Under the pieces are notes generated by a model. It saw only the letters and a program-made list of their open reading frames with translations. It made no database searches and was not told the DNA's origin. Shown here piece after piece: positions 9,155-42,121 of a stretch of 64,000 nt of DNA. The stretch comes from an uncultured virus (IMG/VR IMGVR_UViG_3300030376_003962). Its lineage: Duplodnaviria > Heunggongvirae > Uroviricota > Caudoviricetes. Numbering within the stretch: position 1 is the stretch's first letter; every line of letters starts with the position of its first letter. The stretch lies in the IMG/VR virus record IMGVR_UViG_3300030376_003962. One strand, 5' to 3'. The position numbers were made by a program, and so were the translations under genes.

Positions 9155-10036
9155 TCAGAACCATTCATCTAGCCCCCGTTGATTTCTGTCTTTAGTTATC
9201 TGATTCAAGTCCCATTCCATTGCTCTGAATACAGGCTCTGCTTTCTTGACTACAGAATCTGCATAGTGTTGCCAATCAGGAGTGAAGCCGTCGAAGTCTT
9301 CCTTCAGTAAGAACGAAACGTAGTTTGGCGTTACTGCCTTATCGATAATCGGATTGATATAAGTTTGATTACAGTTCTTTATCCTTAGAAAAAGATACGA
9401 GTCATCTATTGACTGATAGCCCATACTGTGACTAAACAGAACACCTTCTACACCTGAACCAACCGTTGGTCTCTTATCACCAAGAGTCTTGAATGATTTA
9501 GGCGCACCACAACAGGGCGTCTCCATCAAATCAAACATCGAACTGGTCTGACGACAGTTGTTGCACACTACTTGGAATCTCTCTTCCCTGTATCGGCTTC
9601 TTTTGAGTATGTCTACTATTGGTAATCTTCCATTCACGACCTCATTGTACTTTTCATTCAGGTAGTCTACAATCTCATTCTCTGATTTGTTCTCAACCCA
9701 CATGTTGAGTACATTCAATTGCACATCTTTAGCCAATTGAGTGTTGGAAACACGCTTTGCAGTGAATCCTGTCATAACGAACTCTTCTTTATCTAGAAAA
9801 TCTCCGTCTTTCCAAGTAATTAGACCGGCATTTCTGTTTTTTGTTGCTCCAACGCCCAATGTTCGGAAGTATTTCTCAAACTCTAGAGTCACAGGATGTT
9901 CTTTTAGCCCCATTACATTAGGAAAGAGTTCTCTAACATGTTCATTCAGTATTTTAAGAGCCTTTTCAGCAGTCTCTATGCTGTTATCCTCGACATCGAC
10001 GTAAATCGAATCAGTATGACCATAAACTACCTTCAT
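9155..10036 (-). CDS. polB: Family B DNA polymerase, C-terminal part (motif C, thumb, PIP box)
   Basis: Begins MKVVYGHTDSIYV (motif C), then LEFEK, KNRNAG, GFTAKR; ends QRGLDEWF (PIP box). Confidence 0.9.
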   Translation of the reverse strand: MKVVYGHTDSIYVDVEDNSIETAEKALKILNEHVRELFPNVMGLKEHPVTLEFEKYFRTLGVGATKNRNAGLITWKDGDFLDKEEFVMTGFTAKRVSNTQLAKDVQLNVLNMWVENKSENEIVDYLNEKYNEVVNGRLPIVDILKRSRYREERFQVVCNNCRQTSSMFDLMETPCCGAPKSFKTLGDKRPTVGSGVEGVLFSHSMGYQSIDDSYLFLRIKNCNQTYINPIIDKAVTPNYVSFLLKEDFDGFTPDWQHYADSVVKKAEPVFRAMEWDLNQITKDRNQRGLDEWF

Positions 10037-10242
10037 ATTACATTCACATCCTGTAAAAGCGAGAACAAACCGTAAACGAATACAGAAACGAACAGAACCT
10101 TACTTGAAATGCTCAATAACTTCCTAGCATCCTTTAATATCTGATTCATAGCCTCCTTTCTCAACTCAGACTCTGATTTCTCAGGTGTTTTCCCTTTCTC
10201 ACTCTTTAAAAATTCAATATTTGCACTTTTTATTGGCATCAC
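10033..10242 (-). CDS. Small protein with C-terminal TM segment, lying between the two polB parts
   Basis: 69 aa, coupled by GTGA/ATGA overlaps at both ends; VLFVSVFVYGLFSLL. Confidence 0.6.
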   Translation of the reverse strand: MMPIKSANIEFLKSEKGKTPEKSESELRKEAMNQILKDARKLLSISSKVLFVSVFVYGLFSLLQDVNVI

Positions 10243-11903
10243 AGTTCCCTCACTTTAAACGCAGCAGCCCTGATTGCTTCTCTAGCACTAGCAGTTATAC
10301 TAGCAGCCAAATCAACATCAGCCCAACCGAATCCTTGGTATGCGATGATACCATAGAATGAAGCCATCAGTCTTTTGACAGCAAGTTGATTGTTGTTCCA
10401 CTTTGCGTATTCACTTTTACTTTCACTTTCTTTCATCTTCACTTTGTATTCGTTCCTCAACTCTTTGAGTTCTAGAACTGCTTTTGGTAGCAACCCTAGT
10501 TCATTCGTCTTGTAATATCTCATGTCACTGTCCTTTACTTCAGAGAAGTCCTTTGGTGTTCTCAGATTTACACCAAATTCTGTTGGTGCTTCTGACTTGG
10601 TTTCCCAAGAGATATTTCTTGCAATCATCATGCTTGGATATAGACCAGCAAAGTCGAATGCTGCAACACCCAAATGCAGGCCGTTCGTACCCTCGCTGAG
10701 AGGGTCATAGACCATTGCCCCATCATAGTCCACCCTGTCACCTTTCCTACCCGTAGGGGCTTTCCATGAAGCATTTCTCATGAAGTATATTCCACCCATG
10801 TTGCTAGCATAGAAGCAAGCGTCGAATGGTGCTTTTAGTAAAAGTTGTAAAGAGATGATGGCTTCAGTTGTGAAGTTCTCATCGTCTATCCTCTTGATTA
10901 GTTCTACATCTTTCAAAGCATAATCTAGATAGGTCTCTGTGTCTTCTTGCCAACCTCTCCTGAAGAATTCATTCTTATCAGGAAATTTCTCACTGACTAA
11001 CTTCTTTTCTCCAAGCACATGCTCTGATACATAATCCAAGGATAGTGATGGTAGTGTTCCCTTCTGAGCATCATTCCACTGTCTCTCAAACGCTAAGTCT
11101 AGAGGTACACAGATTCTACCCTTGATTGGTTGTGCTATTGGAGAGTAGTTTTCTATCTGCTTCTTCTTAAGAATACGACTACCCTGACTGATAGACCATT
11201 CAACACCTGTGAGTTCTTGAACAGGCGATAGTAGTCTTGGGTCGATGCCATTGACATCTAATCTCTCAATTAATTTAGGAACATCGAACTTCCAACCAAA
11301 CCATGAGATAAGCATATCCGGGTCTTTCTCTGTAATCATTAGAATGAACCTCTCAAGTATAGTTCTCTCAGATTCTTCTGAGTCAGGTTGCCAAGTAAGA
11401 GTGTAATACTCGTCATCAAAGTTATCGTAAACAACAATAGCAGTAATAGCACCATCATGCTCTCCACCTTGCATCCACTCCATATCCCAATACCACTTAC
11501 GCATTCGATATTGTGGCATCTCTGTAATCTCATCAACGGCATAGCGGTAGTGATGTCTCACATCTGCCTCATAGGTGTTGATTCCCCTGTTGTGGAAATT
11601 AGTACGAATCTTACTAATCATCTTCCCTGATTTGGTATAGCGAGTCTTGTATGGCGTCCAAGTCACCTTCAATAGTCTCTGCCCGTCAAGATTAACCCAA
11701 TCTCCTTCTTCATAGAAGAGATTTACGAAGAATGGTTTTGACCTACCCTCCTGTAGAACAATCTTGTCTTTCAGAGCATGGTTTCTGTTTTCGATGAAGA
11801 AGTAAGGGGAGAACTCCGAGAAAGAAATATTCCTATCCTTTCTGTTCTCTTCCTCATCTCTCCAACGTAGAAGAATACCCTCTTCAGTATTTGCTATTAT
11901 CAT
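10239..11903 (-). CDS. polB: Family B DNA polymerase, N-terminal part (3'-5' exonuclease, motifs A and B)
   Basis: ExoI WDMEW, ExoII WKFD, ExoIII YALKD; motif A FDFAGLYPS; motif B QLAVKRLMASFYG. Confidence 0.92.
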   Translation of the reverse strand: MIIANTEEGILLRWRDEEENRKDRNISFSEFSPYFFIENRNHALKDKIVLQEGRSKPFFVNLFYEEGDWVNLDGQRLLKVTWTPYKTRYTKSGKMISKIRTNFHNRGINTYEADVRHHYRYAVDEITEMPQYRMRKWYWDMEWMQGGEHDGAITAIVVYDNFDDEYYTLTWQPDSEESERTILERFILMITEKDPDMLISWFGWKFDVPKLIERLDVNGIDPRLLSPVQELTGVEWSISQGSRILKKKQIENYSPIAQPIKGRICVPLDLAFERQWNDAQKGTLPSLSLDYVSEHVLGEKKLVSEKFPDKNEFFRRGWQEDTETYLDYALKDVELIKRIDDENFTTEAIISLQLLLKAPFDACFYASNMGGIYFMRNASWKAPTGRKGDRVDYDGAMVYDPLSEGTNGLHLGVAAFDFAGLYPSMMIARNISWETKSEAPTEFGVNLRTPKDFSEVKDSDMRYYKTNELGLLPKAVLELKELRNEYKVKMKESESKSEYAKWNNNQLAVKRLMASFYGIIAYQGFGWADVDLAASITASAREAIRAAAFKVREL

Positions 11904-11907
11904 AATA

Positions 11908-12669
11908 TCACCTAGTTAAGTATGGGGCTTTGATTAATACTCTATCTGTTCCCTGCCAAATGACAGGGGATTCATCTCTGAGATAGATAGTTACAGGCAC
12001 AGAGCCACGAAAGAACTTGTGGAACTGTCCAGTCACTTCCACTGTTGCTGATTCACCGTTCATAGATGTTGTAGAGACTATGACATCCACCTTGTCGATG
12101 TCAGACCTTCTACTTGAGACGGTGAAGTGTCGATTATCTGTGTCTAACAGATATTTTGCGTTGTTGATTACATCGCATGTTTTGATTGCATCAGCAAGTA
12201 TAGTCGAACCTGTTGTAATCACAGACTCGAATGATACTTTACTCCAAACGGGGTTCTCCGGTGTTATGGTGAATCCCTGAATCCTTGCAATCATAGATAT
12301 GTTTGGATGGCTTACAACCAACGGAAGACCGGCTTTCTTTCCACCACCTTCGTCATGAAGAATGATGTGGTCTCCTACCTTGAGTGTAATCCTGTCTCCT
12401 GTGAATGTCTTGAGATACTTGAGCATCCTCTCAATCTCGACTACAAACATACTTCTCTCATCGGTGACAGACAGTATTGGAACGGTTATTCTGCAAATGG
12501 TTTGATTATCTGCATTGTACAGGTTCATTTGGTTATCGCTTATCACTTCCAATTCTGCGTAGTTTGTCAATTGACTGTTCTTCGCTGTGTCTCCGTTGTG
12601 ATACTTTCCCTTCATCCACACATCTTCTAGTGCATTCATTAGTGTTTTATTGTCTATTTCTATTCTCAT
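11908..12669 (-). CDS. Putative DNA sliding clamp (PCNA-like)
   Basis: 253 aa with the two-domain alternating alpha/beta pattern of clamps, ending VLIKAPY; next to polB; PIP boxes and RFC occur in the same block. Confidence 0.6.
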   Translation of the reverse strand: MRIEIDNKTLMNALEDVWMKGKYHNGDTAKNSQLTNYAELEVISDNQMNLYNADNQTICRITVPILSVTDERSMFVVEIERMLKYLKTFTGDRITLKVGDHIILHDEGGGKKAGLPLVVSHPNISMIARIQGFTITPENPVWSKVSFESVITTGSTILADAIKTCDVINNAKYLLDTDNRHFTVSSRRSDIDKVDVIVSTTSMNGESATVEVTGQFHKFFRGSVPVTIYLRDESPVIWQGTDRVLIKAPYLTR

Positions 12670-13855: not shown

Positions 13856-15088
13856 TCAATCAAAGAACCAATCTTCTGACTCTTCTACGAAGTCTACATT
13901 CTCAGGACTACCGCCTCTAGCATTAATGACATAGAGACCGTTTACATTGATGCTTGCTGGCCTGATGTTTCCATCAGGGTCTACGCCTTGGGATGTTCTA
14001 CCCACAACTATCACTTGAGAACCTATACCGAAATCGATGTTAATGTTCTCAGGAATCCAGCAGGTTGTGCCGCTCCATCCATCGTTATCGAAATCGAAGT
14101 CAGTGTTCAAGTCATCTAGATTTAGAATCCTGTTGCCGTTAGCAGTGGGCGTAGCGTTGATGCTGTTGACGGTTCCATCTGTGAAGACGAATCTATCATC
14201 CCAATTTGCCTTGTTCTGAGAAACCTGATGATACCTATCAAGGTCAATCAGAGGACTGTAGTTTCCTCCGCAGTATTCCATAACTGCATCTTGTATTATG
14301 ATGCTGTTGACATCCTTCTTCATCTCAGAATCATCAGGTAGGTCTACGTTGTAGACCAATGACTCAAGAGTTTGACCTGCTCCACCATGAATCATATCAT
14401 CACGATTTGAATTAGGTATCACATCGAAGTGAATAAACTCAAAGGTCTTTGGCTCAAAATCCTTGGCAAACTGCTTCTTGTAGGAGAAGAAATACTTCCC
14501 CATATTACCATCTACTTCACCGACGAAGACGCCCTTTCTCTGATACTCGGATGCAGGCTGTGGCTTACCGTAGTTCTTGTTCCAGTCACCCTGTCGAGTG
14601 TCAAGCGGTACAATGAATCTACCACTGTCAACCTCTACATTGTTATCAGGCAAGTTCTTCATATGCTTGACAATCTCATCACCATCTCGCATCATCCTTG
14701 CTTCGTATCCGTCACCGTCTTCAGTAAAGACAGCGACTCTTCCGAGAGAGTAAGTCATATCACTGTCTCTCATGTACTCGTTCGTTAGTCTTTCACGGCT
14801 TCGTGCAGACATATCCATAGCAGGGTTGAGGGAGACAAAGAAGCCGAATGCTTTCTTGTATAGACTGTTACTACCTGATGTAGAGGTCGTCTGTGTGCCT
14901 TGTCTCTTCAGTGCATTGCGAGAATTACTGAAGAACTGTCTCCAAAGACTTCGGGCTAACAAGCCCTCCGTTTCTACGTTGACATTGTTCTTGGAACATA
15001 TTTCCTCAAACTTAGCCATCGCATCGTCTAGGGACATCCCTAGCAGTTCTGCTGCTTTTTCAATTTCATTCTTTATTTCATCATTCAT
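13856..15088 (-). CDS. Putative ssDNA-binding protein (RPA/OB-fold-like)
   Basis: RPA-like N-terminal helix, C-terminal OB-like segment (DGTV...ILNLDD...TTCW...GSQVIVVG), acidic/aromatic tail EESEDWFFD. Confidence 0.65.
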   Translation of the reverse strand: MNDEIKNEIEKAAELLGMSLDDAMAKFEEICSKNNVNVETEGLLARSLWRQFFSNSRNALKRQGTQTTSTSGSNSLYKKAFGFFVSLNPAMDMSARSRERLTNEYMRDSDMTYSLGRVAVFTEDGDGYEARMMRDGDEIVKHMKNLPDNNVEVDSGRFIVPLDTRQGDWNKNYGKPQPASEYQRKGVFVGEVDGNMGKYFFSYKKQFAKDFEPKTFEFIHFDVIPNSNRDDMIHGGAGQTLESLVYNVDLPDDSEMKKDVNSIIIQDAVMEYCGGNYSPLIDLDRYHQVSQNKANWDDRFVFTDGTVNSINATPTANGNRILNLDDLNTDFDFDNDGWSGTTCWIPENINIDFGIGSQVIVVGRTSQGVDPDGNIRPASINVNGLYVINARGGSPENVDFVEESEDWFFD

Positions 15089-15341
15089 TTTCATTTTCCT
15101 CCTTTGTTTTCATTTTCTTTCTTTCGTGTTTTAATTCCACTAATCCTTCTGTCAGCATGACTATGCCACACAATATCCAAAAGAAATTGGAATCTACGCT
15201 GATTAAATTTAGCGTGTTTAATGTAGGCAGTACAATCAGCAATGCACCGCCTAACGCTATTATCTCATACCGAAGTAGTAGATGTTTGATATCTTCAATA
15301 TCCACTACGCCGTCTTTGTTCAAATCCATTTTCATATTCAT
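15081..15341 (-). CDS. Small membrane protein with EF-hand/dockerin-like loop
   Basis: DLNKDGVVDIED followed by two hydrophobic helices. Confidence 0.55.
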   Translation of the reverse strand: MNMKMDLNKDGVVDIEDIKHLLLRYEIIALGGALLIVLPTLNTLNLISVDSNFFWILCGIVMLTEGLVELKHERKKMKTKEENENE

Positions 15342-15426: not shown

Positions 15427-16344
15427 TCAAATCATCTGTCCTATCATCCAAGAAGCAAGTAGTTTTGGAGTCATATTGCTGCTTCTCCACTCTGCTTCTC
15501 CGACTACCCTAAGTAATTTGAACTTCTTGGCGGCTGGCATATCTGTCTTAACTATGACATCGTGCATATTAACACATATTGTTCTCATGTCAACCGAATT
15601 ATACAACAAATCATGCACCTTACCTAAACAATTATCATATTTATTTTCATCAATCATTTGCAATATTTCAGTATAGGGTTCTAAGTTCTTGTCAATCTGA
15701 CTCAATAGCGAAGACTTGCTGTAGATTGCAGCCTGCAATTCAGTAAGTCCTCGTCTCATATCCCCATGAAGGGAGCCTATGAAGATTTCCAAGTCATCGC
15801 TAGATACATGGCTAACTCCCTCATTTTCTAATACTCTCGTCAATAGAAGATGCATAGTCTGTGGTCGCAATCTATCGAATCTGTAATTAGCGCACCTCGA
15901 TTGAAGTGGATGTATTATCCTGTGTCTGTCATTGCAAGTGATAATGAATCTACAATTGTCCGAGTATCTTTCCATCATCCTCTTCAATGCATTCTGCGCA
16001 TCCTTGGTCATACCATCCATCTCATCAAGAAGTATAATCTTGAAAGGTACGTCACCAATCTTCTTCGTGGAAGCAATGTCCTTGATTTGGTTCCTGACTG
16101 TCTCTAGTCTTCTGTCGTCTGATGCGTTGATTTCAAAGAAGTTGCTTGGCTTGTCATCCTTCAGAATATCATTTGCCAGTGCGATACCAGCAGCAGTCTT
16201 ACCTACACCTGCCACACCGTACAATAGAACATTGGGCATATTTCCTTGTGATACCCAACTCTCTGCATCAATCGTGAAGTTATATTGTCCGACTATATCA
16301 GCAATCTTCTTTGGTCTATATTTCTCTGTCCATAACATTTTCAT
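15427..16344 (-). CDS. rfcS: Replication factor C small subunit (clamp loader)
   Basis: LWTEKYRP, GVAGVGKT, EINASDDR, IILLDEMD, AQNAL, LQSRC, GDMRR. Confidence 0.95.
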   Translation of the reverse strand: MKMLWTEKYRPKKIADIVGQYNFTIDAESWVSQGNMPNVLLYGVAGVGKTAAGIALANDILKDDKPSNFFEINASDDRRLETVRNQIKDIASTKKIGDVPFKIILLDEMDGMTKDAQNALKRMMERYSDNCRFIITCNDRHRIIHPLQSRCANYRFDRLRPQTMHLLLTRVLENEGVSHVSSDDLEIFIGSLHGDMRRGLTELQAAIYSKSSLLSQIDKNLEPYTEILQMIDENKYDNCLGKVHDLLYNSVDMRTICVNMHDVIVKTDMPAAKKFKLLRVVGEAEWRSSNMTPKLLASWMIGQMI

Positions 16345-16353
16345 TCCTCATTC

Positions 16354-17208
16354 TTAATCTAACCACTTTGACAGTGTGGTAACTGGTTGTACTGGTGTTG
16401 TCTTCTTTCTCCTTGTTTTCTCACCGAGACCTAACGTGCGCGTGTGTAGCGAACTTAGGGTTTCTCTACAATAGTCTTGAAAATCAGGGTTTTTCATTAA
16501 GTCTTTCAAAAGATAAACTTGAGAATCCCGCATTTTTAACCTTCGTAGAATTTTCGGTATTTCAGAATACTTCTTTCTTTGTGGTGGTGTCATCTTCCTT
16601 TGCATTCTCCCGTCGTGAGAGTAAGCAAGCATTTCGTAGAAGTATGATTTATTCCACCTTCTCTTTACCTTGGAATCAAGGAACATCAATTTGTTGGGAT
16701 GTATGTTCGGTGCTAGCCAAGATATGAATTGAACGTCAGCAGGTTCGCTGATTTTCAGGGTGTTCATGATAATCTCCCTATCGGGATTACGCAGATAGTC
16801 TCCAACCAGTGTGAAGATATCTACATCATAGTTGTGCGGCTCATCAGAACGTGGTGCTAACTCCTTGATTTCATCGACATCTAGTTTCTTGCCACGCTTC
16901 AACTTACATAGATTGAACAGTTTCTTCGGCACATCCTTCTGATTGATGGATGTAAGAACCACTTGACCTCTGTATTCTAGGATAGTCCTCCTGATTAAAT
17001 CGACATTCGGTTTGTAATTACACTCACGAATGATGATACCAACATCTGCTGATAGGCTGTAGTTGTCCTCTATGTCAAACTCATTTGCATATCGAACAAT
17101 AGGCTCATCAGATACAAGTGCCATTGCCTTGTTCAGTTTGTCTGTTCCGTCTTTACCTACTATTATTATCGCTCTATTCTTATTTTCATTTATTTTCAAT
17201 AGACTCAT
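16354..17208 (-). CDS. Divergent RFC large subunit-like protein
   Basis: Directly upstream of rfcS; degenerate P-loop GKDGTDKL; VDIFTLV; C-terminal PIP-like VTTLSKW. Confidence 0.5.
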   Translation of the reverse strand: MSLLKINENKNRAIIIVGKDGTDKLNKAMALVSDEPIVRYANEFDIEDNYSLSADVGIIIRECNYKPNVDLIRRTILEYRGQVVLTSINQKDVPKKLFNLCKLKRGKKLDVDEIKELAPRSDEPHNYDVDIFTLVGDYLRNPDREIIMNTLKISEPADVQFISWLAPNIHPNKLMFLDSKVKRRWNKSYFYEMLAYSHDGRMQRKMTPPQRKKYSEIPKILRRLKMRDSQVYLLKDLMKNPDFQDYCRETLSSLHTRTLGLGEKTRRKKTTPVQPVTTLSKWLD

Positions 17209-17913: not shown

Positions 17914-19440
17914 TCAATATATGTTGCTACACATATCCTCTACGTCTTGAATTGTGTTAGAATCTACGGGGTACTTATCATCCCTGATTCTGACTATTCT
18001 AGGAAATCGCATACCATATGTGCCATCCTTGTTCTTGGTTATCGCATCACAGGTAACTTCCAGTACCACTCTTGGCAGGAAGAAGTATTTGTTATTGGTA
18101 TAACTGTCTACGATTCTCTTCAATCTAACTGATAGTTCATCCATCTCAGCATCAGATATTCCTGAACCCACTTTTCCAATCTCCGTGTATCCTGACTCGC
18201 TTCTGACTGATACACCGTAAGTAGCAATCATGCCTGCTTTCTTGCCATTCCCAAACTCACCCGAAGTTATAGTAACATCAAGTTCTATTCTAGGTGGTTT
18301 GAATTTCAAGAGCGATGTTGTTCTCTTCGATTGGTAAACAGCATCCAAGTCCTTTATCATAACACCTTCAAAACCTGCATTGATAGCAACATTGTATGCT
18401 GCTTCGACATTACCATGAGTGAATGACTGCGCGATATATTCTGATGGTATTGATTCCTCTAGATAATCTAGCCTATCGCTGTAGGTGTCATCTAGCAATG
18501 ATTGTCCGTTGTACATGAGACAATCGAAAACTGCTAACTTCACAGGACAATTCGCTATTGCCTTTTGCTTGTCCTTTGAGTGTACTCTTGTAGCGAGCGA
18601 TTGGTGTTTAGCAGGACTGCCTTCGGAATCCACAGGATATATCTCAGCATCTAATATTATCCCGTTACCCCATTGAGACATTAACTCAACAACATCCGAA
18701 TATTGGTCAGTCACTATCTTTCCCTTGCGATTGAATATAATCGTGCTACCGTAATCACGATGAATCTGATATCTATTTCCATCGTACTTGATATCCATGA
18801 TATACCTCTCAGGTAATTTACCTAGATACTTCTTGGCAAGCATGGGCTTCACATAATTACCATGCACTAATTGTGGTGGCTCAATGTTGTTCTCTAGATA
18901 GTGAATCAATCCAGTCAGTGAGTGACTGACAGAATGCTTCTTCACATCCTCTTGATAGTAATCAGCCATCGCCTTTTCAACAGTGCTTCTGTTTACTCCG
19001 TTTCTCGGTGTTCTCAACCAATAGCGGATAAACCACTTTACTTCCATAGCAGACATAGCACCGATGGCATCAGATATCTGCGTGAAGGCATCTGAGTTTA
19101 TCGTAGAGCAATCTAACTCCAACAACCTGTGAAACTCTGTTACGCTTATGTTTGAATCAGGTCTGTTTGCGGATAGGAACTCTTTCATCCCCTCTCCTAA
19201 GTCCATCCACCTATATGCAGAGTCCTCTATCTCATCTTCAAATACATCGAATATCTTAGCAAGCCATTTGATGGCCTTCTTTTCCCCAATGTTATTCTGA
19301 GCATACTCTAATGCGAGTATGCTGATTACGTCTTTTCTATCACTGAAATGCGATAGAGAAGAGTGAATTAGAAATCTCTTCCTTGTTGGTGTTTCATTCT
19401 CTAGTGACTCACACATCCTGCTGAATCTTATCATTGTCAT
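17914..19440 (-). CDS. lig: ATP-dependent DNA ligase
   Basis: KYDGNR (motif I), LDAE, FDCL, EGVMIK, KFK, RFPR. Confidence 0.95.
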   Translation of the reverse strand: MTMIRFSRMCESLENETPTRKRFLIHSSLSHFSDRKDVISILALEYAQNNIGEKKAIKWLAKIFDVFEDEIEDSAYRWMDLGEGMKEFLSANRPDSNISVTEFHRLLELDCSTINSDAFTQISDAIGAMSAMEVKWFIRYWLRTPRNGVNRSTVEKAMADYYQEDVKKHSVSHSLTGLIHYLENNIEPPQLVHGNYVKPMLAKKYLGKLPERYIMDIKYDGNRYQIHRDYGSTIIFNRKGKIVTDQYSDVVELMSQWGNGIILDAEIYPVDSEGSPAKHQSLATRVHSKDKQKAIANCPVKLAVFDCLMYNGQSLLDDTYSDRLDYLEESIPSEYIAQSFTHGNVEAAYNVAINAGFEGVMIKDLDAVYQSKRTTSLLKFKPPRIELDVTITSGEFGNGKKAGMIATYGVSVRSESGYTEIGKVGSGISDAEMDELSVRLKRIVDSYTNNKYFFLPRVVLEVTCDAITKNKDGTYGMRFPRIVRIRDDKYPVDSNTIQDVEDMCSNIY

Positions 19441-19642
19441 TTTTATTCCTCATTATCTTATCTAGTGCCTTATAGACATCTTCCATTTCTTTCATATTCA
19501 TTCTAACACCCTTCTTCGTAGGTGTTCCGTTAGAATGCCAGCGAATGTCAACTATGTCAACATTCCAATAATTGCCAGTTCTAACTATCAATTCGTCACT
19601 CCCATTCCTTGGGACTCTCACTATTATCTTATCATCCTTCAA
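19409..19642 (-). CDS. PC4/p15-family ssDNA-binding protein
   Basis: VDIRW...PTKKGVRM signature; probable TTG start at 19642. Confidence 0.75.
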   Translation of the reverse strand: MKDDKIIVRVPRNGSDELIVRTGNYWNVDIVDIRWHSNGTPTKKGVRMNMKEMEDVYKALDKIMRNKNDNDKIQQDV

Positions 19643-20030
19643 GCCAACCACCCTTAAACTGCTGCAAGTTCTTCCACGATTTGAAGTATCGGGGAGACTC
19701 TTGCTCATCTACTCTATGTACCACCCACACGACGCCACCAAGACTACTTATCTTAACCAACTCATATGTTTTTCCTCCTACCTCAAACATATCCTCTGTC
19801 TGAACATCGGGAACTAACCCGAATTTTTGTGATAGTTCGTTGGCAATCTCATCCATGTGTTCAGCGATATACTGAACGATTAGATGGCGTTGTATCGGTA
19901 CTTTAGCATCGACGGTAACTTTGATTTTACCATGCATCTCACAAACTCTGCACTTATTACCCTCACAGATAGGGCATGGTATCTCAGCAGGAAGCGGAGC
20001 AGGAAAACGAATAGTCACTGCTTTCTTCAT
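19632..20030 (-). CDS. Hypothetical protein with CxxC...CxxC
   Basis: CPICEGNKCRVC. Confidence 0.6.
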   Translation of the reverse strand: MKKAVTIRFPAPLPAEIPCPICEGNKCRVCEMHGKIKVTVDAKVPIQRHLIVQYIAEHMDEIANELSQKFGLVPDVQTEDMFEVGGKTYELVKISSLGGVVWVVHRVDEQESPRYFKSWKNLQQFKGGWLEG

Positions 20031-20488
20031 TGTCTGCCATCCCATACTCTGTAAACCACTTCGTAGTCAACTGTGACATTGAATGGGAAGGCTGCAAAGT
20101 GTAGGGTTGCATTACCGAATTCAGGTGCGAAACCGCTTGACCAATAATGCTGTCCTTGAACTAAATAACCCTGCATGTCCACCCAACTGTAATTGTTGAA
20201 TATCACGGAGTTGTTCGTGACCTCAAAGGATAGATGTGTTATGTTATACATGAATGATTGAAGTTCAATCGCTCCGTGACTAGCGTTGACATCCAGCCAA
20301 ATTGTCGGGGCATGTATCAGCGTTTCATTCGTTGAGTTATCCATAATCAATGTGAACTCACCTGTAAGAGTCATCCAGTCAGAGTCATTGGTCTGCCCGT
20401 CAAACTCATCTTCAGGCGGGTCGGGTAGTGCTTCAGTACATCCTGCTAGTAAAGCACCTACTATCATAAGCGTCATTATTCGGTTCAT
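20027..20488 (-). CDS. Predicted lipoprotein / surface glycoprotein
   Basis: Signal peptide with lipobox LAGC; 9 N-x-S/T sequons. Confidence 0.7.
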   Translation of the reverse strand: MNRIMTLMIVGALLAGCTEALPDPPEDEFDGQTNDSDWMTLTGEFTLIMDNSTNETLIHAPTIWLDVNASHGAIELQSFMYNITHLSFEVTNNSVIFNNYSWVDMQGYLVQGQHYWSSGFAPEFGNATLHFAAFPFNVTVDYEVVYRVWDGRQ

Positions 20489-20529
20489 GCTTCTCGCAAG
20501 TACAGGAAGGATAAATATGTTGCTACATT

Positions 20530-20616
20530 CTATTGGAAGATGCAGCCGAACTCTTCTAGAGTCGTTTGTCTCTCACCAAATGTAACACCGAATTCACTCA
20601 ACTTAGTCTGTCTCAT
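20530..20616 (-). CDS. 28-aa peptide with two PIP-box-like motifs
   Basis: MRQTKLSEFGVTFGERQTTLEEFGCIFQ; GGAGGGTGAAGA RBS; ATGA-coupled to the upstream ORF. Confidence 0.6.
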   Translation of the reverse strand: MRQTKLSEFGVTFGERQTTLEEFGCIFQ

Positions 20617-20741
20617 TCTTCACCCTCCATCATTCCTGTAAATGCCAAGCCTGTTAACAACTTGGTCTGTAGTTCTAACAGTAGTATAATCTCATCGAGT
20701 TTTCTTTCCACTGCTACTTCATGCCTATTGAATCTCTTCAT
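20613..20741 (-). CDS. 42-aa hypothetical protein
   Basis: MKRFNRHEVAVERKLDEIILLLELQTKLLTGLAFTGMMEGEE; coupled on both sides. Confidence 0.5.
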   Translation of the reverse strand: MKRFNRHEVAVERKLDEIILLLELQTKLLTGLAFTGMMEGEE

Positions 20742-20968
20742 GCTTTCACCACCGATTTAGGGAAGAATACGTCTTCCCAAACTGTCAGTTCTGCTTCAGT
20801 CATCTTGGTAGTGAAGATAGTTCCGCTACGCAGATGTATCTCCACATCAAACGTATTCCTCTTCAACATGCCTTCAGGTACTTCGACTACTGAATAAGCA
20901 GATACCTCTGCCATATTCAATGTCGTATTCCCTGCCGTTGTCGCCAGTTTGTAGAATTTATCTTTCAT
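20738..20968 (-). CDS. Hypothetical protein
   Basis: Coupled ORF with GGTGA RBS. Confidence 0.6.
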   Translation of the reverse strand: MKDKFYKLATTAGNTTLNMAEVSAYSVVEVPEGMLKRNTFDVEIHLRSGTIFTTKMTEAELTVWEDVFFPKSVVKA

Positions 20969-21159
20969 TCTTCATCACCTATCTCAATTATATCCATCAT
21001 TTCCTTCTGCGCAAAACCGTACTTAACATCCATTCCGAATCCTATCTCATGCATTATCTGCATCATAGTTACTATTCTCTCTTGGATGTGGTGCGGTGGG
21101 TCACAAGGTTCCCCATCAACATCGTATTGAATTGCTAGTGTCCAAAATTTCTTACTCAT
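20965..21159 (-). CDS. Hypothetical protein
   Basis: Coupled ORF with GGTGA RBS. Confidence 0.55.
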   Translation of the reverse strand: MSKKFWTLAIQYDVDGEPCDPPHHIQERIVTMMQIMHEIGFGMDVKYGFAQKEMMDIIEIGDEE

Positions 21160-21707
21160 TCTTCTTCACCATCCAATACATCTTCTGCTACCTTCACCCA
21201 ATCAGGTTTCTCAACAGGCTCTTGTTGGTAAATACCGTAGTATACCTTCTTCGCTATTTCTGAATTACAGTCATAGGCAATGAATTGATTATCACCTAGA
21301 ACTGTTGCACTCTCCATCATACCCTTCCATGAATGGATAGTTCCCCAATCAGTACCACTGAAGAAAGCCTGTCCGAATGGATGTGTGTGTATCCAGCATT
21401 TCAATGGTAACTTCATACCACCTAATTGTCCTTCTTGGTCTTTGAAACTAACAAACCCAAATGTTCCAACGCTGATATACAAGTCATCTTTGGCATCAAC
21501 AATAACCTGAACCTCTCTTGGCGAATCAAATGCCTCAAGAGACTTGTTCCATATCACTGTGTAGAATGCCTCAGTCTGAGGGTCGGGAAATGGATAGGCG
21601 AACTCGATTTGCTCAAACACAGTCTTGATGTCCTCTTTCCAACTTTCATCCTTAATCTCTAATCCCTTTATTCCATTATTATCATATTCTGTTTCATCTG
21701 TTTTCAT
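21156..21707 (-). CDS. JAB/MPN+ (JAMM) metalloprotease
   Basis: REVQV...WIHTHPFGQAFFSGTD matches E...HxHx7SxxD. Confidence 0.85.
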   Translation of the reverse strand: MKTDETEYDNNGIKGLEIKDESWKEDIKTVFEQIEFAYPFPDPQTEAFYTVIWNKSLEAFDSPREVQVIVDAKDDLYISVGTFGFVSFKDQEGQLGGMKLPLKCWIHTHPFGQAFFSGTDWGTIHSWKGMMESATVLGDNQFIAYDCNSEIAKKVYYGIYQQEPVEKPDWVKVAEDVLDGEEE

Positions 21708-21950
21708 TTATATTCCTCCCATTTGTGTTACTCTCTTGTCCTGTTCATTCTCAAACTCATGATATGCCCTATGACCTGCGATGAACCCACCTGCGTGTCT
21801 CTTGGTTCCCAAGAACTCTTCACCGCAAACAGGACATACAACCTTCACAATCTCTGCTCGCTTGTAATATCCATCTGTGGAAATTATGGTTATAATCTCC
21901 CCAATATCTTCTTCTGATAAGTCATCTATGTTTTCATCCTCTTTACTCAT
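21708..21950 (-). CDS. C2H2-like zinc-finger protein
   Basis: CPVC...GHRAYH. Confidence 0.55.
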   Translation of the reverse strand: MSKEDENIDDLSEEDIGEIITIISTDGYYKRAEIVKVVCPVCGEEFLGTKRHAGGFIAGHRAYHEFENEQDKRVTQMGGI

Positions 21951-22460: not shown

Positions 22461-22624
22461 TCTTCTTCACCTCTACATTTTACGCATGATAGATTCTGTT
22501 TACATCTACCACAAATTACTCTTGCTTTTGCTAGTGGCAGAAATGCACCTGCACTACTCGCTTCACCTAGAAAGGTCTCAAGCGGATAGTGACAGGCACA
22601 TTCCTTGCAGTCGCATTTACTCAT
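22457..22624 (-). CDS. 55-aa Cys-rich protein coupled to the E1-like gene
   Basis: MSKCDCKECACHYPLETFLGEASSAGAFLPLAKARVICGRCKQNLSCVKCRGEEE; ATGA overlaps at both ends. Confidence 0.55.
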   Translation of the reverse strand: MSKCDCKECACHYPLETFLGEASSAGAFLPLAKARVICGRCKQNLSCVKCRGEEE

Positions 22625-23238
22625 ACTTGCAACACCATCTTATCTACAACGTCATCGTTGTTGTTAAACCACTTCTGTATCCACTGTGTCGCAATACCAG
22701 CAATGGCTATGTTCATGCAATCCACTCCTTGGGGAGTGCCATCCCATTCTCCTGATTGGCAGGAGAAGGAACCCTCGTCACCAGCGAGAAATGCATCCAT
22801 CATCTTAGGGTCAATGAGGTACGAGATTAACGCGCCTGTTCGTCCTTGCGCTCTCAAATCAACCCACTTAATCTTAGCATCAGAGCCAAAGCCCTGCCGA
22901 TATAGTATACGCCTGACCGCTAGATTGTCTGCACAGCAGATAACCAAGTCGTAGCCAATCATCTGCTTCTCAATCAGAACGTGATATGGCTCATCTGATA
23001 CAGAGCCGCCTGCAACCGTGTTGTAGTTCCTATCTGATAGACACTCAACTTTCTTCTCACCTATATCAGACTCAAAGAAGTTCTGATAGGTGAGATTCTT
23101 TCTCTCAACACTATCTTCATCGAAGATTGTTATTCTATATCCTAGCCTTTGGAGGAATTGAGTTAGGAAACTACCTATTCCACCTGCTCCTATTATCATT
23201 ACATTTCTATTCATTCTTTTCATTTTCATATTTATCAC
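22621..23238 (-). CDS. ThiF/MoeB/E1-like adenylyltransferase
   Basis: IIGAGGIGS, DEDSVERKNLTYQ, KKVE, DLVICCADN, RR. Start may be at 23214. Confidence 0.88.
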   Translation of the reverse strand: MINMKMKRMNRNVMIIGAGGIGSFLTQFLQRLGYRITIFDEDSVERKNLTYQNFFESDIGEKKVECLSDRNYNTVAGGSVSDEPYHVLIEKQMIGYDLVICCADNLAVRRILYRQGFGSDAKIKWVDLRAQGRTGALISYLIDPKMMDAFLAGDEGSFSCQSGEWDGTPQGVDCMNIAIAGIATQWIQKWFNNNDDVVDKMVLQV

Positions 23239-40345: not shown

Positions 40346-40438
40346 AATGGGATGCAGAGGAATGATAGAAGTGGGTTCGGATAACATGGCAGTTGGCAGT
40401 TGTTGTCCGTATTGCTACACGAATTGTAGGTGAAGAAG

Positions 40439-40981
40439 ATGAGTTGGAGAAAAATATTGAAGAAAGAAATAGATTTTAAAGAATTATCAGAGGAAGTTGA
40501 GCAGTTTCAGTTGGAGGACTTTAATGCGGTTAAGCATGAAGATTTTATAGAATTCTACGATAAAATCGGTAAAGATGGCAGAGACTCAAAAGAACTAAGA
40601 GAAACTTTAGATGAAAGTGAAAAGAAATACCTCGACAAGCACATTGAGGCAGTATTTCAAGGAATACAACAGTATAACAATTCTCTATATTACCTCGGAG
40701 AAGCACTGGGGGATATTGGGGATGGAAAGGAAAAGAGCGAAAAGGACCCAGTTCCTCAACTTCAGTACGGTAACAAGAACGCAAAGGCAGTTGAAGCAAT
40801 GTCATCCTTTCAAGACCAATATTATGAAAACCCATATTCTGACCCGGAGGAAAATAGAGAGTTAAGTGCTTTCATAGCAGGAGTAAGCAGAGGTGAGTCT
40901 GTGACAGAATTAGAGAAAGAGTACCCCGGAGCATACATAGTCTTCGATAGTGCTGGATTATTGAACGAGGTGGAGGAATGA
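40439..40981 (+). CDS. MSW-leader acidic protein
   Basis: MSWRKILKK. Confidence 0.65.
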   Translation: MSWRKILKKEIDFKELSEEVEQFQLEDFNAVKHEDFIEFYDKIGKDGRDSKELRETLDESEKKYLDKHIEAVFQGIQQYNNSLYYLGEALGDIGDGKEKSEKDPVPQLQYGNKNAKAVEAMSSFQDQYYENPYSDPEENRELSAFIAGVSRGESVTELEKEYPGAYIVFDSAGLLNEVEE

Positions 40982-41171: not shown

Positions 41172-41828
41172 ATGATTACTAGAAAGCGTTGTCCTCTGTG
41201 TATGCATGAGGATAGGAGTCAACTTGAGGCTGATTTGGAAGCCATGAGTTACACAGCAGACGCTCTCGACCAGCAAATGGGATGGCAAAGTGGAACAACA
41301 GCCCGTCATCAGAGGAATCACATGGGAGCATATGTCGAATCTGCAAATCCTAGTTGCAAATTATGCACAAGTCCGATGAGAGCGGAGATAGAAGCGCAAC
41401 TTCACGCTGCTGAAGTCACTCCAACTGCTGTAGCGGAGATGCTTGGGTGTTCTGAGGTGCAAGTTGTGCGTCATATCGACAAGCATCTCAAGCCAGTCGT
41501 GCAACAATCGGCTGCGAACCTGATTGCAACGAGGGAAGTTGATGAAATCGAGACTTTGAGCGTGAATGTTCAGAGATTGGAGCAAAAAATTGATACACTT
41601 TTCGCTGAAGACTCAACAGACCCGAAATATATCGACTCATTGACCAAATTAGCGAAGGAAGTTCGTGAGTCGTTGAAGTATTTGCTAGAATTCAAGGGCA
41701 AATTGGTGCATAAGAGGCAAGACACTATCATCGTTCATCAGATGCAGGTAATCAAGGAAGTTCTAGCGCAGAACCATCCCGATGTCTGGGTTGATGTGAG
41801 AAGCAAACTACAGGAGAAGATGCAATGA
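41172..41828 (+). CDS. Putative terminase small subunit / DNA-binding protein (tandem CxxC-HTH-HxxxH)
   Basis: Two repeats CPLC...RHQRNH and CKLC...RHIDKH plus a coiled coil; upstream of terL in the head module. Confidence 0.5.
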   Translation: MITRKRCPLCMHEDRSQLEADLEAMSYTADALDQQMGWQSGTTARHQRNHMGAYVESANPSCKLCTSPMRAEIEAQLHAAEVTPTAVAEMLGCSEVQVVRHIDKHLKPVVQQSAANLIATREVDEIETLSVNVQRLEQKIDTLFAEDSTDPKYIDSLTKLAKEVRESLKYLLEFKGKLVHKRQDTIIVHQMQVIKEVLAQNHPDVWVDVRSKLQEKMQ

Positions 41829-42121
41829 GTTGGATGGCGGTTCTTAAGCAAGAAGACCTTGAAGTTTTTTGGAATTCAAAAGATGGAAAGGCAGGTGCAG
41901 AAGTTTTCTATGCAGGTTATTGGGGAATTTTGTCTTTTCATCATGATGGAGAAGAAAGAAAGGGATTGGGAGAAAAATACCTAAGAGAACTGGTTGAACA
42001 CTTGCTTTCAATAAAGGATGCAGACATAGAGGCCGATGGAACTTTACCCGATGTAGATGGATTTTGGAATAAAATGCTAGAGAAAGATATTATTGATTCA
42101 ATTAGAAGAAGAGGACAATAG
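41825..42121 (+). CDS. MSW-leader GNAT-like acetyltransferase
   Basis: MSWMAVLKQ; ERKGLGEKYL (motif A) and GFWNKM. Confidence 0.55.
   Translation: MSWMAVLKQEDLEVFWNSKDGKAGAEVFYAGYWGILSFHHDGEERKGLGEKYLRELVEHLLSIKDADIEADGTLPDVDGFWNKMLEKDIIDSIRRRGQ

Follow-up and report, generated by a model that had tools for sequence, protein, structure and literature searches.

A 28-residue micro-protein of two PIP-like boxes in a magrovirus-type genome and its candidate role at the sliding clamp

The micro-gene and its conservation

The uncultured virus IMGVR_UViG_3300030376_003962 (Caudoviricetes) was analyzed over a stretch of 64,000 nucleotides, referred to throughout as the window, whose minus strand carries an open reading frame (ORF) of 29 codons at 20530..20616. 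Its product of 28 amino acids (aa) reads MRQTKLSEFGVTFGERQTTLEEFGCIFQ and contains two motifs that resemble the PCNA-interacting peptide (PIP) box. A first-pass annotation, made from the letters alone, had claimed an ORF with two such motifs at this place; that ORF is confirmed, on the minus strand (the annotation gave no strand), and both RQTKLSEF and RQTTLEEF are read in it. Across the six frames of the window, these two motifs were the sole matches to the pattern [RK]Q[TS].L.[DE][FW]. The locus has the following features:

20530..20616, minus strand: 28-aa micro-protein gene, stop codon included (ORF reading and conservation)
20590..20613, minus strand: PIP-like motif 1, RQTKLSEF, residues 2-9 (six-frame pattern search)
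20548..20571, minus strand: PIP-like motif 2, RQTTLEEF, residues 16-23 (six-frame pattern search)
20620..20628, minus strand: Shine-Dalgarno-like GGAGGGTGA, three bases 5' of the ATG (putative function)
20613..20741, minus strand: upstream 42-aa gene, whose TGA overlaps the micro-ORF ATG as ATGA; syntenic in relatives
20509..20521, minus strand: conserved A/T-rich stretch AACATATTTATCC, within the 41 bases between the micro-ORF stop and the next gene
20027..20488, minus strand: predicted lipoprotein of 153 aa (MNRIMTLMIVGALLAGC...), lipobox read by eye, downstream of the micro-ORF

Relatives were obtained as 43 viral contigs by retrieval anchored on the ATP-dependent DNA ligase of the window. 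In eight of them (L001, L003, L004, L005, L007, L009, L010 and L013; ligase identity 69-100%), a two-box ORF of 28-37 codons occupies the same place within a shared order of 76-aa gene, 42-aa gene, peptide, lipoprotein gene, Zn-finger gene, 99-aa gene and ligase, and the start, stop, and ribosome site are retained in all eight. Other arrangements were also found. In L011 and L012, a two-box peptide of 31 aa is encoded downstream of the RFC-S gene, with a 112-aa membrane-protein ORF on one side and a 411-aa gene on the other; L017 encodes a 26-aa one-box peptide at another genome place, away from the lipoprotein gene; and in L014 a single box is fused to the lipoprotein. The peptide or a fused box is present in 12 of the 17 ligase-anchored loci with enough upstream DNA to judge.

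Among the eight syntenic homologues, the ratio of nonsynonymous to synonymous variation (pN/pS) is 0.26 in the frame of the ORF, whereas four of the other frames give 1.2-1.8 and a single antisense frame gives 0.41; the 43 variable columns of the 29 codons are distributed 10/10/23 over codon positions 1, 2, and 3. The annotation had named lack of conservation among the outcomes that would count against it; the ORF is conserved in place in eight relatives, where it evolves under purifying selection. Within the ORF itself, the two 9-residue repeats are identical at 7/9 residues versus 16/27 bases, and five of the seven differing codons are synonymous, so the repeat is kept as protein and not as DNA. 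The 28-aa ORF is a genuine coding gene. Its very short length would suit a repeat that acts untranslated, as a DNA or RNA element, but such an explanation is barely credible given the greater identity of the repeats as protein, the dominance of third-position variation, a pN/pS of 0.26 found only in the ORF frame, and the retention of start, stop, and ribosome site in 8/8 syntenic relatives.

The good ribosome-binding site and ATGA coupling noticed by the annotation correspond to GGAGGGTGA and to the ATG/TGA overlap with the 42-aa ORF, as in the neighbor genes. The site sits within the last codons (MEGEE) of the 42-aa gene, the DNA upstream of the micro-ORF reads ...GGAGGGTGAAGA and then ATG, and the same GGAGG/GGTGA spacing precedes most genes of the module. 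Many small genes between 20613 and 22624 on the minus strand end in G-[DE]-E-E (MEGEE, IGDEE, DGEEE, RGEEE), because the GGTGA/GGAGG ribosome site of the next gene and the ATGA overlap occupy their last codons; GEEE ends are present on relatives of the peptide too. The A/T-rich element behind the micro-ORF, as ...ACATATTTATCC or ...ATATATATCC, is also found 3' of homologous peptides in relatives and is possibly the archaeal TATA box of the next gene.

A family of magrovirus micro-proteins and the viral clamp

By its sequence, the micro-ORF belongs to a large, undescribed family of one- or two-box micro-proteins of magroviruses, the group to which the window is assigned below. A degenerate pattern for QTT[L/F]EEFG was found in 62 viral contigs, with 61 matches in stop-to-stop ORFs of at most 85 aa, and these contigs gave 41 distinct short peptides, 21 with one box and 20 with two. 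One-box peptides are typically 23 aa long and read M..ENSRQTTLEEFGF.FE. In 596 Gb of cellular genomes, the same pattern was found at 43 places only, 34 of them within ORFs of at least 104 aa; only two of the cellular matches resemble the family, one on a magrovirus-like contig binned with a Maricaulis metagenome-assembled genome (MAG) and one on a 2.2-kb contig of a Poseidoniales MAG. JGI metagenomes contained at least 118 loci with the pattern, and among the matches listed, 78 lie in closed ORFs of at most 90 aa. A profile of 10 peptides matched 30 proteins at E ≤ 0.001 among 1.84 billion representatives; when the sequences were read by eye, 25 were one- or two-box proteins of 26-99 aa, three were DUF7487 repeat proteins, and two were unrelated repeats.

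Conservation is concentrated on the residues that define the box, numbered here from the Q as position 1. The annotation had proposed to look for conservation at Q, L, and F. In family alignments of 10 and 20 members, Q and L are invariant in both boxes, and the aromatic residue at position 7 is nearly so, together with the preceding R, the T after Q, and the E at position 6; in alignment A4, motif 1 shows no variation at its Q, L, E, and F. The boxes of family peptides are spaced 14-15 residues apart. At the same place, homologous peptides swap the aromatic-G-hydrophobic form with canonical forms (QTKLWEWI, QTTLWEFL, QATLWEWL, QTKLTDFY, QTTLDEFF, and QTTLEEFL at the C terminus), and position 8 alternates between G followed by a hydrophobic residue and I, L, F, M, or Y.

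No match was obtained by tblastn of the peptide or blastn of 19400-21800 against an annotated phage collection, a Pfam scan of 10 peptides at E ≤ 10 gave nothing meaningful, and the family profile gave nothing at E < 0.3 against PDB chain sequences. No description of a free PIP-box micro-protein was found in the literature searched on magroviruses, PCNA, and archaeal viruses (subscription papers and supplements lie outside it), and the portions of the magrovirus papers PMC5434244 and PMC10160649 covered by term searches make no mention of such peptides.

A second peptide type, on L045, L048, L055, and similar contigs, reads MEEE..RQTKLWEWIP..RQTTLEEFGVRRT.NT. and has one box of the W type and one of the F-G type. 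On either side of it lie conserved stretches rich in G+C, ggtgctccgagtcccaag... upstream and ...ctttggcgggtggctcacct downstream, which look like structured elements. The 2.2-kb contig of the Poseidoniales bin, which is G+C-richer, carries at L127:84-293 (plus strand) an ORF of 65-69 aa, M..SNRSEQEQVQETRQTTLEEFGFEFDLPEV..., also seen on metagenome contig L215; this ORF could be the version of the peptide belonging to the host or to another element.

The minus strand of the window also encodes a replication module, in which three products bear on the possible partner of the peptide:

11908..12669, minus strand: viral sliding clamp (PCNA-like), candidate target (AlphaFold2 model and Foldseek)
9155..10036, minus strand: C-terminal half of PolB, ending in the canonical PIP box QRGLDEWF (Pfam, tail reading)
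16354..17208, minus strand: 284-aa protein beside RFC-S, with the clamp-hook-like tail ...TTLSKWLD (tail reading)

Sequence searches of Pfam, PHROGs, and PDB gave no match for the ORF at 11908..12669, and in a protein atlas it falls in unnamed viral clusters only, one of them with gp45-slide_C on 10% of its members. The top Foldseek matches in PDB of its AlphaFold2 model, built with 19 homologues (predicted local distance difference test score 73.8; predicted template modeling score, pTM, 0.54), are all sliding clamps: Haloferax PCNA (3ifv, E 4.8e-10), A. fulgidus PCNA (1rxm), Pyrococcus and Sulfolobus PCNAs, and bacterial beta clamps, with template modeling scores of only 0.31-0.38 and a poorly modeled domain arrangement. 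The alignment of the viral clamp (A2) found no relative among genome contigs, and its hhalign comparison with host PCNA (A3) was weak (probability 9.9, E 0.0032) and colinear over the C-terminal domain only, and is not counted as evidence. Judged from the structural model, the virus has its own divergent sliding clamp.

PolB is split between adjacent minus-strand ORFs, 10239..11903 and 9155..10036 (Pfam DNA_pol_B), and the second ends in QRGLDEWF, as the annotation had read. Further Pfam matches on this strand are an RFC-like AAA protein (15427..16344), the ATP-dependent ligase (17914..19440), a ThiF-like protein, a ribonucleotide reductase, an ERCC4 nuclease, and a PD-(D/E)XK nuclease. Magroviruses have the gene order RFC-S, PCNA, PolB-NTD/CTD (PMC10768690), and a replication gene set of this kind also appears in passages of PMC5434244. 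In the features compared, namely a PolB in two parts, a clamp of its own, RFC, and an ATP-dependent ligase, with more replication genes encoded on the same strand, the window agrees with the replication module of Magrovirales, and it is a magrovirus-type genome of marine archaea.

The 284-aa protein has no Pfam match, its homologues in relatives end in QQGLAEWF, QPSLGRWF, or QASLDRWY, and it is probably the partner (second) clamp-loader subunit. A separate 412-aa protein at 13856-15094 (minus strand) has the acidic tail ESEDWFFD, kept at the C terminus as ..DWFF[DE] or ..DWF in relatives, which would be a docking tail of another kind, reminiscent of SSB C termini.

Likeness of the boxes to archaeal clamp hooks

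The textbook PIP consensus is Qxxhxxaa, as given in passages of PMC6204406 and PMC4929162, the latter of which includes the consensus PIP peptide KTTQSTLDSFFK on A. fulgidus PCNA (PDB 1RXM). Both QTKLSEF and QTTLEEF have Q at position 1, a residue of the L, I, M class at position 4, and an aromatic residue at position 7. PIP boxes are expected in disordered or terminal segments, and here the motif spans nearly the whole protein: the AlphaFold2 model of the closest homologue, of 30 aa, has no globular fold (pTM 0.28) and contains only a one-turn helix on L-S-E-F of box 1, which is the shape of a PIP box, although as evidence it is weak.

For comparison with the presumed host, tails were read in 26 Poseidoniales genomes reached via MAG contig L127. 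All 18 readable FEN1 tails end in [QKR]xx[LI]xxF, mostly as GQTSLFSF, with 15 stopping exactly at the position-7 F and three continuing with DG. RNase HII tails end in QxxLxx[FW] in seven of 20 cases (QSTLEDW, QSSLDEW, QRSLDDF), without an aromatic residue at position 8; the remaining 13 are off the pattern, and most show a shorter Q..LF form. Structures have established archaeal FEN1 and RNase HII as clients of PCNA, and 1rxm and 3p83 are among the Foldseek/PDB matches of the viral clamp model. A matrix composed only of 15 distinct host FEN1 and RNase HII tails was used to scan 75,606 heptamers from six-frame ORFs of at least 20 aa in the window. Box 2, QTTLEEF, ranked 1/75,606 with 18.1 bits, followed at rank 2 by the PolB tail QRGLDEW with 12.8 bits, about 5 bits under box 2. 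Two plus-strand proteins of the window, at 41825-42121 and 40430-40981, carry PIP-like words near their N termini (KQEDLEVFW; QFQLEDF), and QFQLEDF stood at rank 7 with 10.3 bits.

The motif is also used as a C-terminal tag on archaeal DNA enzymes, since a Top6B of Nitrososphaerota (L139:1843-3477, minus strand) ends in ...RQTTFEEFG (KKKEKVSEAERQTTFEEFG directly before the stop) and a Rad51-family protein of Methanomassiliicoccaceae (L113:1021-1773, minus strand) ends in ...NQTTLEEFGGR, both identified by Pfam. These two proteins are candidate clamp clients, as yet unreported.

Archaeal client tails (FEN1, RNase HII, PolB, and the RFC large subunit) and the peptide are alike in the form Q-x-[ST]-L-x-[DE]-aromatic with a basic residue before it, and in being short, with no fold predicted for the 30-aa homologue modeled alone. 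Unlike these tails, the peptide is not attached to an enzyme, the motif, once or twice, makes up the whole protein, and position 8 is G followed by a hydrophobic residue.

A putative clamp-pocket plug and its alternatives

Given the match of the boxes to host hooks, we lean, if only slightly, toward the peptide being a free plug for the clamp pocket, formed of two host-type PIP boxes and acting by occupancy, with the host clamp as the more likely target. The translated, largely unfolded 28-residue product would present two boxes of the form Q-T-x-L-x-E-F, one of which at a time would fill the hydrophobic pocket that lies beneath the interdomain connector in a PCNA subunit. An occupied pocket would keep clients (FEN1, RNase HII, polymerases) off the clamp, in the manner of the C-terminal peptide of eukaryotic p21. 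Addition of a second box would increase local concentration and rebinding rate, as do the tandem motifs of Spd1, without bridging two pockets in one ring. The clamp of the Poseidoniales host would be targeted, and the divergent viral clamp and W-type client tails would be left free. Because the product holds nothing beyond two hooks, it could only occupy the pocket and not tether, and one hook should be enough, since many relatives carry a single box (21/41 distinct short peptides).

The annotation had spoken of a bivalent clamp-binding peptide. Its two boxes stand, with Q and L invariant and box 2 as the top host-matrix match; the bivalency holds only with reservations, since one-box relatives suggest that a single box suffices. 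An arrangement in which the two boxes reach two pockets of one ring was considered and rejected, as the 6-residue linker (V11-E15; 7 from G10 to R16) looks too short against a distance between pockets roughly estimated at about 50 Å. Four reasons, none decisive, point to the clamp of the host. The box is a copy of host tails, with Q, with S/T at position 3, and with nothing aromatic at position 8, and it has remained constant where the viral tails have drifted. In addition, the gene lies among many small genes of the viral-takeover kind, and poisoning the host clamp is affordable for a virus that has one of its own.

Several observations weigh against a host-clamp plug. Position 8, where the consensus has an aromatic or hydrophobic residue, is G in both boxes, a miss that weighs less because homologues alternate G with canonical forms and the presumed host hooks lack position 8. 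Box 1, QTKLSEF, is outside the top 15 of the host-tail matrix, that is, below 8.6 bits. Host and viral clamps are inseparable by motif likeness, with the viral PolB tail at rank 2 also fitting the host matrix, and the homologue of the 284-aa protein in L011/L012 ends in ATLGDF, an F-type tail. No such peptide is present in the fetched DNA of L015, L016, L018, L019, and L020 (5/17 assessable loci), and translation of the micro-ORF is deduced from selection. Three DUF7487 repeat proteins share the word [KR]QTxLE[KR]YG, although the likeness goes no further than this word. Boxes are fused in frame to the downstream lipoprotein signal peptide and lipobox in L014 (one box, L014:2000-2461, plus strand) and P0033 (two boxes), which counts against a pure clamp plug because such a plug does not predict fusions; the fused box would face the cytoplasm and so is compatible with a membrane-held hook.

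Among the alternatives, it is rather unlikely that the peptide docks on the viral clamp (11908..12669) as a regulator, timing a replication-packaging switch or excluding host clients. The position of its gene within the replication module would fit such a role, as would the QRGLDEWF tail of the viral PolB, which matches this class of motif well, and, in L011/L012, the location of the peptide near the RFC-S gene together with the closeness of ATLGDF on the 284-aa homologue to RQMTLTEF of the peptide. However, viral tails of this lineage are W-type with a hydrophobic position 8 (DEWF, SKWL, AEWF, GRWF, DRWY), whereas the peptide has F-G like the host; they also vary by lineage, whereas the peptide motif is nearly constant (QxTLxEFG); and plugging its own clamp would bring the virus no obvious benefit. 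Each of these counterarguments is weak. Docking on a partner other than a clamp, for instance as a short form of the DUF7487 repeat [KR]QTxLE[KR]YG that binds nucleic acid or another hub, is unlikely. The family profile did match three DUF7487 proteins (E 2.6e-5 to 1.2e-4), through 3-6 repeats each, and the G at position 8 is shared with those repeats. Against this, Pfam DUF7487 (PF24308) matched 0/10 peptides at E ≤ 10, the repeats recur about every 33 residues (by eye) with an extra NP.Q part absent from the peptides, whose boxes have a spacing of 14-15 residues, homologous peptides show canonical PIP variants in place of the G form, and a clamp accounts better for the identity with the hooks of host FEN1 and RNase HII. 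The DUF7487 proteins P0035, P0037, and P0040 have tandem repeats containing [KR]QTxLE[KR]YG[VF], with DUF7487 as the only Pfam match, and in P0035 and P0040 an endonuclease-like domain seemingly follows the repeats, by eye.

A most unlikely role is service to the downstream lipoprotein, as a leader, an upstream ORF, or a detached cytoplasmic part of its signal peptide. The peptide is encoded directly upstream of the lipoprotein gene in eight relatives, and two separate in-frame fusions join boxes to a hydrophobic segment and lipobox, in L014 (MNEENSRQTTLKEFGLVFLIAVMLSGC) and in P0033 (two boxes and then FLVCVLLAGC). Yet the peptide lies away from the lipoprotein gene in L011/L012 and L017, the two genes of the window are in different frames with the 41-base spacer and its conserved A/T-rich element between them, leader peptides rarely keep a whole amino-acid sequence through synonymous change, and the fusions are still compatible with a cytoplasm-facing clamp hook. 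It is very improbable that the peptide is a substrate for the ThiF-like (22621..23238, minus strand; E 3.1e-18) and JAB-like (21156..21707, minus strand) enzymes, which would make it a modified peptide akin to microcin C or to ubiquitin-like proteins. Both enzymes are encoded within 2.7 kb on the same strand, the Prok-JAB match being weak (E 0.017, below cut-off) and over the stretch HTHPFGQAFFSGTD, but seven genes intervene, the peptide shifts its genome place in other lineages, its conserved positions are internal and not C-terminal, and it has no GG end, its C-terminal residue differing among members (Q, E, D, N, Y, H, K, or L, among others). The JAB-like enzyme, a 183-aa protein whose HTHPFGQAFFSGTD is JAMM-like, is in one gene string with the ThiF/E1-like protein, and the adjoining 80-aa gene at 21708-21950 ends in ...QMGGI; these genes may constitute a small viral ubiquitin-like or sulfur-carrier module.

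The proposed clamp-pocket plug has precedents among cellular and viral proteins. The p21 box is similar to RQTT-L-EEF. The C-terminal PIP peptide of p21(CIP1/WAF1) inhibits PCNA, according to passages of PMC6204406, and the peptide is proposed to resemble it in keeping other proteins off PCNA. Unlike the stand-alone viral 28-residue product, p21 is a protein of the cell that acts in the cell cycle and carries a CDK-inhibitor domain, and homology to it was not found, the family profile having no match to PDB sequences. TIP, the Thermococcales inhibitor of PCNA, has 64 aa (passages of PMC4929162 and PMC6204406); it is cellular, restricted to Thermococcales, has a helix or PH-like part for which the 28-aa peptide has no room, and breaks the trimer, unlike a viral peptide of two boxes. 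Homology to TIP was likewise not found, with no profile match at E < 0.3 among PDB chains, a bank whose content of TIP or p21 chains of at least 20 residues is unchecked. In Spd1 of S. pombe, tandem PIP motifs exchange on one PCNA site, as described in part of PMC10939359. The likeness is in two tandem motifs within a small disordered protein; Spd1, as portrayed there, is unlike the peptide in being a much longer eukaryotic checkpoint and ribonucleotide reductase regulator with divergent, low-affinity motifs. Phage Twort Gp168 disables the bacterial beta clamp by binding its DNA channel (passages of PMC11139829) and is alike as a small viral protein aimed at a host sliding clamp, which is the presumed target here; it is unlike in using the DNA channel and not the client pocket, in its bacterial host, and in being a folded protein by the same account. 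Molecules that bind or block the clamp pocket are known; a viral family of stand-alone micro-proteins that do so would be new.

An extension of the clamp-pocket plug, which we hold only tentatively, is an "orthogonal clamp code" in which the viral clamp is served by x-[DE]-W-[FLY] tails and host-hook micro-proteins of 15-85 residues saturate host PCNA early in infection. If this were true, host replication and clamp-dependent repair or restriction would be shut down with viral replication untouched, and tandem boxes and lipoprotein fusions would represent higher potency or a host clamp pinned at the membrane.

Poseidoniales, which cannot be cultured, count among the most abundant archaea in surface ocean waters, and the viral takeover of their cells is little understood. 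A 30-codon floor in gene callers misses this whole conserved family. If the proposed function is true, a gene encoding only the clamp hook of the host would be a very compact takeover device, and the family would provide the first virus-encoded PIP-pocket blocker in archaea, a counterpart of the p21-derived peptides that inhibit PCNA.

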